Shown: one piece after another, positions 1 through 7,782 of the stretch
Position numbering within the stretch: position 1 is the stretch's first letter
Layout: each line of letters begins with the position of its first letter
Assembly: GCA_017991475.1 (NCBI GenBank)
Contig: JAGOQK010000004.1
Location: 7,227-70,549 of the forward strand
Source: Minisyncoccota bacterium
Lineage (GTDB): Bacteria > Patescibacteriota > Minisyncoccia > Phycocordibacterales > PALSA-1337
Reading direction: 5' to 3'
DNA: 63,323 nt
Notes under the pieces: model-generated
Databases searched by the model: none
Told to the model about the DNA's origin: nothing
The model's input: only the letters and a program-made list of their open reading frames with translations
Made by a program: the position numbers and the translations under genes

Positions 1-289
1 GAGCTGCGCTCCTCATAAATATGCTCAAGGTCTTCGATTCCTCGACATGAGCCGCGCAGGCGGCTCGTTATCGCCCATACTGTTTAATGAATATATAAAG
101 TGCGTGGCGGGCGATCGAGGAATCGAAGCTTACAGCTTCAGTACACCTTTCGCATTTCTTCGGAGCTGCGCTCCTCATAAATATGCTCAAGGTCTTCGAT
201 TCCTCGACATGAGCCGCGCAGGCGGCTCGTTATCGCCCATACTGTTTAATGAATATATAAAGTGCGTGGCGGGCGATCGAGGAATCGAA
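1..289. repeat. Tandem direct repeat, 162-bp period, made of the tRNA-Trp 3' end plus a structured trailer; at least 2 units, truncated by the window start
   Basis: 1..127 is identical to 163..289; each unit contains tggcgggcgatcgaggaatcgaa, the reverse complement of the tRNA-Trp 3' end. Confidence 0.95.
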
Positions 290-340
290 CCTCGGACAGC
301 GGTTTTGGAGACCGCAGTTATGCCACTTAACTAATCGCCC
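267..340 (-). tRNA. tRNA-Trp(CCA)
   Basis: Minus strand: GGGCGAT/ATCGCCC acceptor stem, anticodon loop CTCCAAA, GGTTCGATTCC T-arm, encoded CCA end. Confidence 0.97.
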
Positions 341-407
341 AAAAAAAGAAGGTAGAACTAATCCTACCCTCTTTTTCATCGTTATGCAAAGCTTCAGACG
401 TGTAGGC

Positions 408-563
408 TTACTTCTTGGCCTCCTTGAAGACTACGTGCTTGCGCAGAACAGCGCTGTATTTCTTGAGCTCGATCTTGCGCTCGACAAGCTTCTTGTTCTT
501 GCGGGTCCAATAGGTCTCGCCAGTCGACTTATTCTTGATTTGTATGAGTGAATCCTGTGACAT
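408..563 (-). CDS. rpmG: 50S ribosomal protein L33
   Basis: MSQDSLIQIKNKSTGETYWTRKNKK...IELKKYSAVLRKHVVFKEAKK; start set to the ATG at 563. Confidence 0.95.
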   Translation of the reverse strand: MSQDSLIQIKNKSTGETYWTRKNKKLVERKIELKKYSAVLRKHVVFKEAKK

Positions 564-602
564 ATGGGTAAAAATGAATGTGGGAACACTATAGCACGGA
601 AT

Positions 603-635
603 AAAAAAGACCGCAACGATTGCTCGTTGCGGTCT
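603..635 (-). terminator. Intrinsic terminator after the 330-aa gene
   Basis: 12-bp perfect stem agaccgcaacga/tcgttgcggtct followed by a T-run on the minus strand. Confidence 0.85.
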
Positions 636-660
636 ACTGAATTCACATGTCAATCAAGGT

Positions 661-1653
661 TTAGCCTTTGCCCCCCGTATACAAGAACTGGGGCTGACCG
701 AATTTGGACCAATTGAACTTGAGACGGTACTTGCCCGTATGGAACAGCACTGGAGTCGCTGCACTGGCATCCAGCACAACTGTGCTGACTTCTTCAGTCT
801 GCATATTCGTTACCTCGACAGCGATAGGCCGTTCGAAGTGGGCTTTGCCGTCCTGAATAAGGCCCAACACATCGATAGTCACCTCTTGCTTGCCTGCAAG
901 ATCGAGGAATGCGGTCGGAAGGGTCCATGTTTCCATGATCTTCAGAGTCACGTCCTTGGCTGATGATTTGAGCATGTAATGACCATTAATCGAATACTTA
1001 TCCGATCCATAGACCACTTCCGGCGTATTCGCGACTGGCTTGGACACATTGTAGGTCAGAACGACACCATCGGTAAAAGTGACCGACAGCATCACGTTGT
1101 AATACCCCGACATCCATGTTGGCCACATGATTTGGCCATACTGATTGACCTCGAGGTCTCGAATTTCGGTTGTCTGACCTTTCTCATCGAAGATGAGTGC
1201 TTGGGCATTCGAAACCCCCGACAAGATTGGGATGTTCTGCATCCAAATCCCCGTATGGATTCCATTTGTCTCATTGAGGTCCTTCGCGATCGCACTGCCG
1301 TATCCGAAGAAGAGTAAGGTCCAGTTCGTATCGTACGCGTACGCGTACGAACTAACCTGATCCAACGGATTGAGCACGCGGTAGTTGAAGGGTACCGAGA
1401 ACAGCTGATCGAACAACTGTTCACCATAAGCCGCGTTTGTCTCCGTGTAGCGGACGGTATTGGTGTAGCTCCAGTCCATACTGGGGCTGTACACGTAGCG
1501 GCCCCCTTGCGTGGCGATGGAGAGCGCGTAATTGCGGAGACTATCCTCGCTACGAATTTGCGGTAACAGCGCAGGATGATCTCCTGCAAAGGCCGCGCAC
1601 GCGAGTGTGGTAACTGCACCGATAAGTGCAGCGAGAGTATACTTAAGTTTCAT
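661..1653 (-). CDS. Secreted hypothetical protein (330 aa)
   Basis: Signal-peptide-like N-terminus MKLKYTLAALIGAVTTLACAAFA; beta-rich body; ends in TGGKG. Confidence 0.85.
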   Translation of the reverse strand: MKLKYTLAALIGAVTTLACAAFAGDHPALLPQIRSEDSLRNYALSIATQGGRYVYSPSMDWSYTNTVRYTETNAAYGEQLFDQLFSVPFNYRVLNPLDQVSSYAYAYDTNWTLLFFGYGSAIAKDLNETNGIHTGIWMQNIPILSGVSNAQALIFDEKGQTTEIRDLEVNQYGQIMWPTWMSGYYNVMLSVTFTDGVVLTYNVSKPVANTPEVVYGSDKYSINGHYMLKSSAKDVTLKIMETWTLPTAFLDLAGKQEVTIDVLGLIQDGKAHFERPIAVEVTNMQTEEVSTVVLDASAATPVLFHTGKYRLKFNWSKFGQPQFLYTGGKG

Positions 1654-7025: not shown

Positions 7026-7218
7026 AAATATATAGTACTATAAAAATAGGTGCTTAGTCAAACATGTTGCCTATCTTACTTGTCACGACGCGACATTCGC
7101 AGATTTCTTACGATTGAGTCGCCGAGGCACGCTCAAAGTGTACTAGGTATCAGGTTAAATTGAAAGTTGCAAAAAACCCATCGTCCGAAAACGATGGGTA
7201 TGTAGCGTGCGCGAACAT

Positions 7219-7782
7219 TCACGCATGTGCTGGTTGAGGAGCGGTAGATGGAACTCTGGCACACGCGATCGTGCGTGCGCGAGCACACTCTTCTTCCCCT
7301 CGAGCCATGATATAACTCATCACACTGAGCACGATATGGTCGCTTCCTCTGCCGGACTGGATGTTATTCGGCATCCGACATCTCACCACAGGCTCCATTG
7401 GACCCTGCATGATATCGCCTCGAGGACATTCCGAGCAATCCATCGGACACATGTTGGCAGTCGCATACAAATGCACGATGCGCTTTGGGTGCGTCAGGTC
7501 GAGCGGTAAACGCGCGCATTCTTCAGGAGAGATTATCTCGAGACAGCCCGCATCGCTCGAAAAACTGAATGGACGAATCGTCTCGTCGATCCACTTGAAT
7601 ACAATCCACAGGCCTGGCGCACCCGCAAGAGGGGCTATCAAAGCACTGGTGTAGTGCGCATCGGCGAAACTTAGCGACTCGATCATGCTAGTCTCAGCGA
7701 AGCGGTGAATAACCTCCCTCTGAAGGATGGAGCGCGCAGGATTCACGGAAACCGACTTAACTTTCGGTTGGGTATCACTCAT
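7219..7782 (-). CDS. Hypothetical protein with a Cys cluster
   Basis: 187-aa ORF in the smc-clpB gap with a downstream hairpin near 7171-7198; CPMDCSECP motif. Confidence 0.65.
   Translation of the reverse strand: MSDTQPKVKSVSVNPARSILQREVIHRFAETSMIESLSFADAHYTSALIAPLAGAPGLWIVFKWIDETIRPFSFSSDAGCLEIISPEECARLPLDLTHPKRIVHLYATANMCPMDCSECPRGDIMQGPMEPVVRCRMPNNIQSGRGSDHIVLSVMSYIMARGEEECARARTIACARVPSTAPQPAHA

Follow-up and report, generated by a model that had tools for sequence, protein, structure and literature searches.

The window, meaning the whole analysed stretch of 63,323 nucleotides, began within a tandem repeat attached to a tRNA-Trp gene. The gene was placed downstream of rpmG (about 397-565, minus strand) and was followed by copies of a 162-bp unit, here called a cassette. 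An earlier note on this DNA had described a tRNA-Trp followed by 162-bp tandem units that contain its antisense and regenerate its 3' end, and every sequence element listed there was found in place. The following features were assigned:

267-340, minus strand: tRNA-Trp(CCA) gene with encoded CCA (ARAGORN; Rfam tRNA model, 64.3 bits)
267-289, minus strand: direct-repeat copy 1, the final 23 nt of the tRNA-Trp itself, T54 to A76, TTCGATTCCTCGATCGCCCGCCA
105-266, minus strand: tRNA-proximal cassette, one complete 162-bp unit (R1 covariance-model match at 106-238, 121.6 bits; predicted folds)
239-266, minus strand: AT-rich spacer of 28 nt, without a terminator
232-238, minus strand: P1 5' strand, GGGCGAT, identical to the tRNA acceptor 5' strand and complementary to ATCGCCC
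211-228, minus strand: P2 hairpin, GAGCCGC-CTGC-GCGGCTC (predicted fold; family covariation)
195-207, minus strand: P3 5' strand, TCGAGGAATCGAA, exact antisense of the T-loop and T-stem 3' strand (T54 to A66; inverted repeats I6 and I8)
141-194, minus strand: conserved core consisting of P4, an internal loop with tandem G-A, and P5, a long hairpin capped by a GCA triloop
125-139, minus strand: P6 mini-hairpin, GAAGCT-GTA-AGCTTC; the GTA triloop is invariant, and the 3' strand of P6 continues into the regenerated T-loop
105-127, minus strand: direct-repeat copy 2, TTCGATTCCTCGATCGCCCGCCA, a regenerated tRNA 3' end with which the proximal cassette closes
1-104, minus strand: first 104 nt of the second, tRNA-distal cassette, 100% identical to 163-266
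C13:7069-7091, beyond a scaffold gap at window base 1: direct-repeat copy 3, the third copy of the 23-mer, joined to unique flank

Read in tRNA sense, the proximal cassette was ordered as spacer, P1 5' strand, P2, P3 5' strand, P4-P5, P6 and regenerated tRNA 3' end. By its position in this layout, P2 was the stand-in for the D arm, anticodon arm and variable region of a tRNA. The GGAGC-GCA-GCTCC hairpin was located inside 153-185 (minus strand). P4 of the Trp unit was ACCTT/AAGGT, a flipped form of the AGGYT/ARCCT typical of the family. The segments 105-127 and 267-289 were identical in sequence. With a period of 162, positions 1-130 equalled 163-292 with a sole mismatch at the border, and the direct repeats around the Trp units comprised 23 (+2) nt. 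No ORFs were present in the 162-bp unit. Tandem Repeats Finder did not detect the repeat in the window because fewer than two full copies fall inside it.

In predicted folds of the Trp unit, the antisense arm paired with the sense copy and enclosed the structured core. The stems closing this clamp were an acceptor-like helix of 7 bp and an elongated T-stem, and the structure ended in GCCA; folded as DNA, the unit had a z-score of -6.7. This fold and the recurrence of the architecture behind 6-8 tRNAs of the source genome go well beyond what would be expected by chance. The conserved parts were the three-way-junction core (P4/P5, P6) and the P2 hairpin, clamped by the antisense and sense copies of the stretch from T-loop to 3' end. 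The suggestion that each unit folds into a tRNA-like form ending in CCA agreed with this predicted clamp and with the RtT RNA of Escherichia coli, which ends at the regenerated CCA. When tRNA and unit were folded together at minimum free energy, a purely thermodynamic prediction, the antisense arm took the real tRNA 3' half and the spare copy completed the cloverleaf. Sequestration of the real tRNA 3' half by the unit, also proposed earlier, may therefore be possible.

Window base 1 directly abutted a scaffold gap of 100 Ns (C13:7127-7226). Beyond the gap, the last 34 nt of the second unit were present (C13:7093-7126). From this leftover unit end and the third 23-mer left of the gap, the array was therefore reconstructed as flank, 23-mer, unit, unit and tRNA. 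Measured as assembler word depth of Logan contigs, and not from raw or long reads, a 169-nt unit contig of the source run X1 had a depth of 23.4, compared with 12.6 and 11.7 for its flanks. It passed through the junction that holds the gap and ended at the branch expected for two units. The R1 covariance model scored a complete unit across the Ns (L001:7070-7302, 94.6 bits). The approximately twofold contig depth and the model match spanning the Ns point to an array of exactly two units and to a gap without further DNA. A hidden island in the gap was rejected, as the unit contig at twice the flank depth runs through it and the model spans the Ns. An 'empty site' joint in X1 (7089 to 7495, depth 2, 20-nt side) was dropped because it was too short and its coordinates were inconsistent.

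A single unit could have been duplicated by assembly or scaffolding when contigs were joined across the N gap. The 100 Ns interrupt the second unit exactly at the unit-phase boundary, and many family members are located at contig ends in MAGs; both observations speak for an artefact. Against this, the window holds one complete unit and 104 nt of a second without a gap between them, the unit contig in X1 had about twice the depth of both flanks and stopped at the two-unit branch, and tandems of the cassette family recurred in independent assemblies. An artefact, which the earlier note had named as a possible refutation, is therefore highly improbable; neither the contig depths nor the covariance-model match across the Ns supported it. 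The cassette units do break MAG assemblies at tRNA genes, the N gap at tRNA-Trp being an example.

Copy number differed in related samples. A relative of approximately 92% identity in runs X3 and X4 had one unit. In the sister sample X2, a contig with a depth of 3-4x led from the unit into the tRNA without a branch into a second unit, which suggests that X2 carries one unit. No excised circle was seen, nor a tRNA-Trp site cleanly lacking the cassette in a strain identical in all other respects. The identical Trp doublet would most likely be recent: the 25-bp repeats may have recombined unequally or by strand slippage, or a unit may have re-inserted into the regenerated site.

The same architecture was recognised 3' of six tRNAs in the source genome (about 6-8 overall). 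The copies numbered about 7-8, and the covariance model gave 8 hits. A covariance-model search across CPR genomes, as the earlier note had put forward, found cassettes in 31 of 41 related genomes, at most 14 in any one genome, and in none of the 100 other Patescibacteria searched; within the order, 12 of 17 genera had them. More than 115 loci with the exact pattern were found, nearly all from Paceibacterota/Parcubacteria MAGs. As a family, the cassettes are specific to this order of Paceibacteria-type CPR bacteria; their docking site is the 3' end of a tRNA or tmRNA gene. Fifty-four of 72 copies were located at most 60 nt 3' of a same-strand tRNA, spanning 26 anticodon types, and three further copies followed tmRNA. 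The orientation was fixed relative to the tRNA and the arms were matched to each host tRNA. The exact direct repeat had a median length of 20.5 nt, started at T-loop positions 54-58 and ended 0-2 nt past the discriminator. With a size of roughly 135-165 nt and no genes, a cassette left the tRNA intact and placed a spare tRNA end approximately 160 bp downstream.

Searches elsewhere returned no further members. Viral contigs of IMG/VR scanned with the exact core pattern held none, and a first JGI metagenome scan for more tRNA-Trp cassettes found none. A second JGI scan yielded 91 loci, which were discarded as chance matches because none of the 80 listed matched the covariance model. The literature contained no relevant description of such cassettes in Patescibacteria that we could find. 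Among the Rfam 15 covariance models, only the tRNA model matched, and all others stayed far below their gathering scores. The possibility of an already described Rfam or REP family, raised earlier, thus found no support. A hammerhead or other known ribozyme, a riboswitch and an sRNA were likewise rejected for want of an Rfam match, and by inspection the order of junction-strand lengths was unlike that of a hammerhead.

The fold was conserved while the sequences changed. Among six copies within the source genome, 35 of 46 pairs showed compensatory changes. Across 74 copies, 44 of the 46 base pairs covaried and 94.2% of cells were paired, compared with 64.7% in shuffles. P2 was paired at 97.8% across the family and all of its nine pairs covaried (9/9). 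Pair counts for the family were 2847 Watson-Crick, 79 G-T and 48 A-C, a G-U share of 2.5%. The triloop of P6 was invariably GTA. A GCGAAGC mini-hairpin motif was enriched 16-fold and restricted to the sense strand. The idea that the antisense arm is a mere copy of the tRNA 5' strands was rejected, as several arms also complement the discriminator and 4-5 trailer bases; the G-T wobbles of the arm against the 3' strand also counter it.

Presence at any one tRNA was sporadic. Only one of 20 tRNA-Trp loci in relatives carried a cassette (G003), or 2 of 21 genomes with the source genome included. The cassette in G003 had a different core, and its arms fitted the T-stem variant of G003 itself. The remaining 19 of the 20 loci in the genus were cassette-less and their flanks were not conserved. 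In G065, tRNA-Trp was followed by a 45-nt deletion remnant with a 10-nt repeat. The 11-mer ACTTTATATAT of the Trp spacer also occurred in the native trailer of tRNA-Trp in the nearest relative without a cassette, so that perhaps only part of the unit was inserted. Tandems recurred in relatives and some combined unlike units (L036, L074). In mutated spare copies, the antisense arm still fitted the tRNA at 6/6 interior sites, and the spare copies decayed without compensating changes. Patchy presence at orthologous tRNAs, stacking and variation in copy number between close strains indicated that cassettes are gained and lost at the DNA level. Among the earlier suggestions, a tiny tRNA-targeting mobile element fitted best, given the patchy presence, the at least 26 tRNA types, the mixed tandems and the copy-number differences.

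No minus-strand terminator was found in the array. As no terminator lies between them, the units are probably co-transcribed with tRNA-Trp. In RNA run X16, represented by metatranscriptome contigs with possible DNA carry-over, one 163-nt contig covered the leader, tRNA-Trp and 51 nt of the trailer and unit without a mismatch. At the tRNA-Leu cassette, X16 contained nothing from the source organism. Terminator-like hairpins between tRNA and module were present in at least 11 of 54 spacers. If E. coli RtT is a guide, the units may be excised as CCA-ended RNAs, perhaps as a by-product and not as their raison d'être.

RtT (tyrT-tyrV, rttR, RF00391) is a real, stable RNA in E. coli. To our knowledge, its role is still poorly understood, and the 178-bp repeats, known since the late 1970s (1978), have been given no convincing origin or role. 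The mode of action of RtT is called unknown in a preprint (10.1101/2024.07.17.603846). In the MG1655 sequence, RtT units lie directly 3' of the tRNA on the same strand, as do the cassettes. In each unit, a spacer leads to an antisense arm, GGGGAAGGAT, which is complementary to the end of the T-loop and the T-stem 3' strand. The core has several hairpins with many GNA triloops and GCGAAGC motifs, and a 19-nt sense copy AATCCTTCCCCCACCACCA of the tRNA end from T-loop to CCA comes last. The predicted fold of RtT is again a clamp of antisense and sense arms around the core. The 178-bp units are arranged in tandem, with 3.14 copies downstream of tyrV and a single copy between tyrT and tyrV, and the annotated E. 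coli RNA ends exactly at the regenerated CCA. Unlike the cassettes, RtT has a single antisense arm of 10 nt, lacks the acceptor-strand arm and the P2 hairpin, and contains the tpr ORF in its units. Its known site is tRNA-Tyr; the CPR family, with arms re-fitted to the host gene, follows at least 26 types of tRNA as well as tmRNA. RF00391 gave no match at E up to 10 in window 1-700 or at E up to 1 in cassettes L002 and L013; its gathering score is 45 bits, and the four E. coli units used as positive control reached 133-138 bits. Conversely, the R1 model scored only 10 bits on RtT. The CPR cassettes share the RtT design without any detectable homology and are not members of the RtT family by covariance model. 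Neither the parallel to RtT nor the scaffold gap appeared in the earlier note.

Other systems shared single traits. Islands that target tRNA or tmRNA genes likewise show a repeat from T-loop to tRNA 3' end, an intact tRNA, use of tmRNA and tandem stacking at the regenerated site. The cassettes differ by the absence of integrase and cargo, a whole element of about 140-165 bp, a covarying core, an inverted copy of the target and at least 26 target specificities within one family. With integron attC and CTX attP(+), they have in common that structure is kept while sequence changes and that stems are almost purely Watson-Crick. CTX-type hairpin integration leaves a sense site, the remainder of the element, an antisense site, a loop and a sense site, and the cassette layout follows this order. 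In contrast to attC and CTX, no IntI or dedicated Xer partner was identified, and the mimicked target is the end of a tRNA gene and not attI or dif. The scarcity of G-T pairs and the strand-specific GNA and GCGAAGC hairpin motifs would be indirect signs of a single-stranded substrate. REP/REPIN elements and quasipalindrome correction offer short, gene-less, intergenic hairpin repeats with arms that stay complementary while copies diverge. Cassettes differ in being tied to tRNA ends instead of randomly dispersed, in arms that copy the neighbouring gene and in showing no co-occurrence with RAYT/Y1.

A direct repeat from the T-loop to the 3' end of a tRNA or tmRNA is classically shown by integrase target sites. 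With this signature at their borders, the units could be leftovers of integrase-driven tRNA islands, either att scars or miniature cis-mobilisable derivatives, perhaps acting as spare att sites that absorb islands. Large serine-recombinase genes adjoined tRNA ends in many relatives, and in L096 and L101 such a gene adjoined the spare tRNA end of the cassette. G011 held an 18.5-kb copper-resistance island between tRNA-His and its cassette. In the alignment, however, this island stopped before the cassette and its end was shared with a cassette-less island in G019, so that island and cassette in G011 were regarded as separate entities. At least 12 serine-recombinase islands had no module within 10-20 kb, and cassettes and serine recombinases did not co-occur; the only serine recombinase of the source genome was encoded on contig C10 and not in a cassette. 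That the module forms the distal end of serine-recombinase islands had seemed promising in G011 and G014:C51 but was rejected on the G019 alignment, the module-less islands and the missing co-occurrence. Scars, moreover, would not retain a covarying three-way-junction core or an antisense arm, and the exact core pattern did not occur in the IMG/VR viral contigs. The spare tRNA end is usable as a landing site, as islands adjoined it in L096 and L101; in two other relatives they adjoined the genuine end. The decoy that blocks integrase att sites, proposed earlier, is possible, the usable landing site being the part of it that was observed. Serine-recombinase islands are independent of the cassettes and sometimes land at the spare tRNA end; an origin of the units from such islands is improbable.

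Alternatively, the cassettes could primarily be RtT-type RNA genes in the tRNA 3' trailer, with DNA gain and loss as a secondary matter. Their P1/P3 clamp would mimic the cognate acceptor/T minihelix, and RNase P, RNase Z and the CCA-adding enzyme would release a CCA-ended RNA. Such an RNA might tune tRNA maturation, either itself or through an alternative pairing of its antisense arm with the 3' half of the real tRNA, act as a decoy for factors that bind tRNA ends or serve as a stringent-type signal. The order of parts is that of a tRNA: acceptor 5' strand, one hairpin in place of the body, T-stem 5' and 3' strands, acceptor 3' strand, discriminator and (C)CA. Structural covariation was strong across genera, G-U exceeded A-C pairs (79 compared with 48) and the strand was fixed relative to the tRNA. 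A joint fold of tRNA and unit at minimum free energy swapped the 3' halves, the RNA-run contig extended from the tRNA into the unit, and E. coli rttR is an annotated RNA of 171 nt that runs from +8 to the regenerated CCA. Set against this, G-U accounted for only 2.5% of pairs, a much lower share than in typical RNA families, and terminator-like hairpins separated tRNA and module in at least 11 of the 54 copies. Cassettes were sporadic at any one tRNA (2 of 21 genomes for Trp), spare copies decayed without compensation and unlike units were stacked in tandem. The sole RNA run was a metatranscriptome, maybe with DNA, and had nothing from the organism at the tRNA-Leu cassette. We regard a primary role as RNA genes as unlikely, while giving it some weight. 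If the cassettes were tRNA-coupled RNAs, they would form an unannotated RNA class in genomes that afford little non-coding DNA.

The locus is best explained, with moderate confidence, as a two-unit tandem of a gene-less structured cassette that is gained and lost at the DNA level and probably co-transcribed with its tRNA. The tRNA-sense DNA strand may fold as a single-stranded hairpin in which one arm templates the other. Upkeep of the arms would then be a quasipalindrome-type template switching with the selected tRNA sequence as master. Hairpin folding and templated arm copying are proposed because the stems are nearly pure Watson-Crick and the arms track each host tRNA. New copies could arise by site-specific insertion at the T-loop, where the folded P1-P3 stem might mimic the duplex end of a tRNA gene in the manner of the CTX-phage attP(+) hairpin and integron attC. 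If insertion were specified by base pairs or structure without a gene of the element itself, the cassettes would be a new kind of mobile DNA.

Several observations did not favour mobile DNA. Large serine recombinases were absent from the cassette-rich, nearly complete genomes G029 and G035-G038. The IS200-type Y1 transposase PF01797 was absent from G000, G011, G029, G035 and G028, which carry 5-11 cassettes each, and occurred in several genomes that have no cassettes. An IS200/RAYT-type driver was rejected, since such enzymes did not co-occur with cassettes. No simple known reaction would adapt the two halves of the antisense arm, located on either side of P2, to a new tRNA, which counts against mobility. 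The excess of G-T over A-C pairs, the fixed orientation and the mimicry of an acceptor/T minihelix would fit a selected RNA equally well.

A more general proposal is that RtT and the CPR cassettes are two instances of one unrecognised kind of self-retargeting element. A gene-less mimic of the tRNA end, formed by the folded strand, would home to the T-loop of tRNA and tmRNA genes, re-template both arms from the tRNA at which it inserts and be released out of the tRNA transcript as a CCA-ended tRNA mimic. This generalisation is tentative and rather doubtful at present; if true, it would give a first mechanistic handle on the RtT repeats. In a distant, ultra-reduced lineage, the cassettes replace a single-locus curiosity by a comparative system with hundreds of copies, at least 26 tRNA types and tmRNA, re-fitted arms and visible gain, loss, stacking and decay. 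The comparison revealed the constant parts, namely the three-way-junction core, the GTA triloop and the repeat boundary in the T-loop, the other parts being copied from the target.

The elements of the tRNA-Trp locus in the window (C13:7227-70549 of G000, the 771-kb source genome of 17 contigs) are listed here in tRNA sense.

267-340, minus strand: tRNA-Trp(CCA) with encoded CCA, downstream of rpmG
266-239, minus strand: AT-rich spacer of 28 nt, directly after the CCA of tRNA-Trp
238-232, minus strand: GGGCGAT, the acceptor 5' strand of tRNA-Trp itself
228-211, minus strand: hairpin GAGCCGC-CTGC-GCGGCTC
207-195, minus strand: TCGAGGAATCGAA, exact antisense of T54-A66
194-141, minus strand: core, a 5-bp stem ACCTT/AAGGT around a long hairpin with a GCA triloop
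139-125, minus strand: mini-hairpin GAAGCT-GTA-AGCTTC
127-105, minus strand: TTCGATTCCTCGATCGCCCGCCA, a new copy of the tRNA-Trp 3' end

Every element of the array described in the earlier note, tandem 162-bp units regenerating the tRNA 3' end and containing its antisense, was located in the sequence and was correct. At a period of 162, positions 1-130 match 163-292 except for a single mismatch at the border. The spacer (239-266) shares ACTTTATATAT with the native trailer 3' of tRNA-Trp in the closest cassette-free relative (L004, G024:C43) and may be either native trailer or element DNA. In the genus (L004-L023), the tRNA-Trp genes of G000, G003 and G049 encode CCA; those of most relatives do not and end in ...GCCCGC.

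A scaffold gap of 100 Ns immediately precedes window base 1. Left of it, the unique flank is followed by a further 23-mer, the third copy (C13:7069-7091), and then by the 34 nt missing from the second unit, giving a plus-strand layout of flank, 23-mer, unit, unit and tRNA body. Sequencing run X1, which held 94% of words, is probably the source sample. Its Logan contigs flanking the array had depths of 12.6 and 11.7, and a 169-nt contig comprising the whole unit including the gap junction had a depth of 23.4. This contig stopped at the end of the 23-mer, the branch point required of a two-unit array. The covariance model built for the cassette family, R1, recovered a complete unit across the Ns with 94.6 bits. 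Based on assembler word depth, not raw or long reads, the array therefore consists of two units, with nothing hidden in the gap. The tandem is genuine, and an assembly artefact, which the earlier note had wished to see excluded by read mapping, is highly improbable. The sister sample X2, from the same study, had identical sequence; its contig passed from the unit directly into the tRNA body without a branch, suggesting a single unit in this sample as well. A relative of about 92% identity in runs X3 and X4 carried one unit on an 8-kb contig. The second N100 gap of G000 (C14:104940-105039) falls within repetitive protein-coding sequence and has no connection with the cassettes.

Further cassettes were identified starting from a 27-nt match on contig C3, followed by a scan of all tRNA genes in the genome. 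Six tRNAs of G000 (Glu-CTC, Ile-GAT, Arg-GCG, Trp, Leu-TAG and Leu-GAG) showed the same downstream pattern, with the antisense copy 50-67 nt and the sense copy 136-162 nt from their own 3' end. The six copies were alignable and alike in fold, with the following stems.

P1: acceptor-like stem
P2: hairpin in place of the tRNA D arm, anticodon arm and variable region
P3: T-stem lengthened by pairing with the 3' half of the T-loop
P4/P5 and P6: stems on a three-way junction

Compensatory changes occurred at 35 of 46 pairs among just these six copies; they include P4 of the Trp unit, which is flipped entirely. With 74 aligned copies, covariation was detected at 44 of 46 pairs, and 94.2% of cells were paired; shuffles gave 64.7% and slid partners about 40%. 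The covariance-model search across CPR genomes proposed in the earlier note returned 8 copies in G000. Of 41 related genomes, 31 had copies, with a maximum of 14 in one genome, and 12 of the order's 17 genera were represented. No copy turned up in 100 further Patescibacteria genomes spanning 90 genera. An exact-pattern scan of GTDB species representatives gave more than 115 loci; nearly all of those listed were in MAGs labelled Paceibacterota, Parcubacteria, Nomurabacteria, Taylorbacteria or similar. A full-text literature search on such repeats downstream of Patescibacteria tRNA genes gave no relevant result. The Trp array is a real two-unit array of a publicly undescribed cassette family resembling the RtT repeats of Escherichia coli.

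For comparison, RtT was analysed in the MG1655 sequence. It comprises 3.14 units of 178 bp after tyrV and one diverged unit between tyrT and tyrV. Within each unit, a spacer leads into the antisense GGGGAAGGAT and then into a core of several hairpins, which includes GCA and GAA triloops and the motif GCGAAGC; the sense copy AATCCTTCCCCCACCACCA follows. In the predicted fold, the two arms hold the core between them as a clamp. The rttR RNA is annotated as starting at +8 and ending at the regenerated CCA. RtT and the CPR cassettes share the same design, including the tandem habit. With the Rfam RtT model RF00391, the E. coli units reached 133-138 bits and the CPR cassettes gave no score, and R1 reached 10 bits on RtT; homology was not detectable. 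Exonuclease-resistant DNA coverage of the rttR region is reported to increase under stress, with the mode of action called unknown (2024 preprint, 10.1101/2024.07.17.603846).

Docking was surveyed for 72 copies in 60 fetched loci. Of these copies, 54 lay on the same strand within 60 nt 3' of a tRNA, representing 26 anticodon types, and three followed a tmRNA 3' end; the rest comprised second units, copies at contig ends and a few orphans. The exact tRNA-end repeat had a median length of 20.5 nt, started in the T-loop at 54-58 and ended mostly 0-2 nt past the discriminator, with longer repeats representing partial or full second units. One cassette was located behind an ARAGORN-called CUA-anticodon, i.e. 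amber-reading, tRNA ('Pyl'; L068, G014:C54:6469-7270). The spacer of a tRNA-Leu(TAG) cassette (L086, G017:C1:109900-111500) comprised 225 nt against the usual 7-49 nt, so extra DNA can sit in the spacer.

Presence was patchy between species. At the tRNA-Trp loci of other species of the genus, a cassette was present in 1 of 20 (G003). Its core was unlike that of the Trp units in the window (P4 AGGCT/AGCCT, P6 CCCCT-GTA-AGGGG), and its arms matched the T-stem of G003 itself (CTTCC), one of the pairs being a G-T wobble on the tRNA-sense strand. Where the spare copy of a cassette differed from the tRNA in the interior, the antisense arm agreed with the tRNA at all six sites. In G065, tRNA-Trp is followed by a 45-nt insert (L008, G065:C13:22750-24000) with a spacer resembling that of the G003 cassette and the 10-nt tRNA-end repeat GATCGCCCGC at its end, then by the native promoter-like flank ACTTGACA of the empty relatives. 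The insert appears to be what is left of a cassette after a deletion. Tandems recurred in G016, G006, G028, G036 and G038. The paired units were identical at L028 and L075 and unlike at L036 and L074; the unlike pairs require successive insertions and not duplication alone. In several cassettes, a second small insert of 25-50 nt ending in CGCCTACTGGGT breaks up hairpins or the regenerated tRNA end (G000 C12:~7480-7510, Arg-GCG, and C16:~12440-12490, Leu-GAG; L074, G014:C90) and may be a nested mini-element.

A DNA-level element gained and lost in dependence on its hairpins is the reading we consider fairly probable. Its arms would be copied from the host tRNA as template, hairpin folding would be the basis of gain and loss, and the Trp doublet would stem from slippage or re-insertion. 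GNA triloops and d(GCGAAGC) form exceptionally stable DNA mini-hairpins. Signs of DNA were near-pure Watson-Crick stems (2847 pairs, with 79 G-T and 48 A-C; 616 with 5 G-T in P2), the invariable GTA triloop of P6 and the GCA apex of the Trp P5, and a 16-fold enrichment of GCGAAGC, confined to the tRNA-sense strand. A perfect hairpin with a T-run between tRNA and module, found in at least 11 of 54 spacers, was also counted for DNA. Fold stability of the unit is similar on the two DNA strands (z = -6.7 and -6.3). The main rival, a selected tRNA-coupled RNA, is possible, if doubtful. The excess of G-T over A-C pairs, the tRNA-like layout and the lack of a terminator between tRNA-Trp and its units were counted in its favour. 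In the RNA run X16, a 163-nt contig without mismatches, possibly from DNA carry-over, spanned the leader and tRNA-Trp and extended 51 nt into the trailer; for the tRNA-Leu cassette, nothing from the source organism was present in this run. In the minimum-free-energy fold of the tRNA with one unit, the antisense arm pairs with the tRNA's own 3' half and the spare copy completes the cloverleaf. The sequestering of the tRNA 3' half considered in the earlier note is therefore thermodynamically possible.

That the cassettes are island scars or decoy att sites is quite unlikely. One orphan copy, in G011, has the end of a tRNA-His, and the true tRNA-His lies 18.5 kb upstream. Located between the two are a large serine recombinase of 528 aa, the stop codon of which overlaps the tRNA-His end, and copper/heavy-metal resistance genes. 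Aligning this island to its related counterpart in G019 placed the island end at ...GCGACCACGCGACCCC, just before the cassette, which G019 does not have there, so the island landed between tRNA-His and a pre-existing cassette. At L096 (G014:C54:12000-20369) and L101 (G018:C3:1-10100), the recombinase gene ends at the spare tRNA-end copy rather than at the genuine tRNA, making the regenerated end an alternative landing site for islands. Large serine recombinases were absent from cassette-rich, nearly complete genomes, and IS200-type Y1 transposases did not co-occur with cassettes.

The G011 island (L089, G011:C3:58000-77400) is headed by the recombinase and encodes two P-type ATPases, HMA, DsbD, DUF305 and thioredoxin. 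Large serine-recombinase genes abut many tRNA 3' ends in the lineage (His, Asn, Lys, Gln, Gly and Leu; L089, L090, L091, L092, L094, L095, L103, L105, L106, L108 and L109), with Resolvase, Recombinase and Zn_ribbon_recom domains and the stop codon often within the tRNA end. The sole homologue in G000 (C10:300-1541, 32% identity, 439-aa open frame) is on a 6.7-kb contig that may be a separate island or phage piece. Beside a serine-recombinase gene at L085 (G014:C51, ~31,050-31,330 in contig coordinates), a tRNA-like 3' end, GGTCACAGGTTCGAATCCTGTCTCCGGAGCC, received no ARAGORN call; with a long structured stretch in front, it may be an interrupted or degenerate tRNA.
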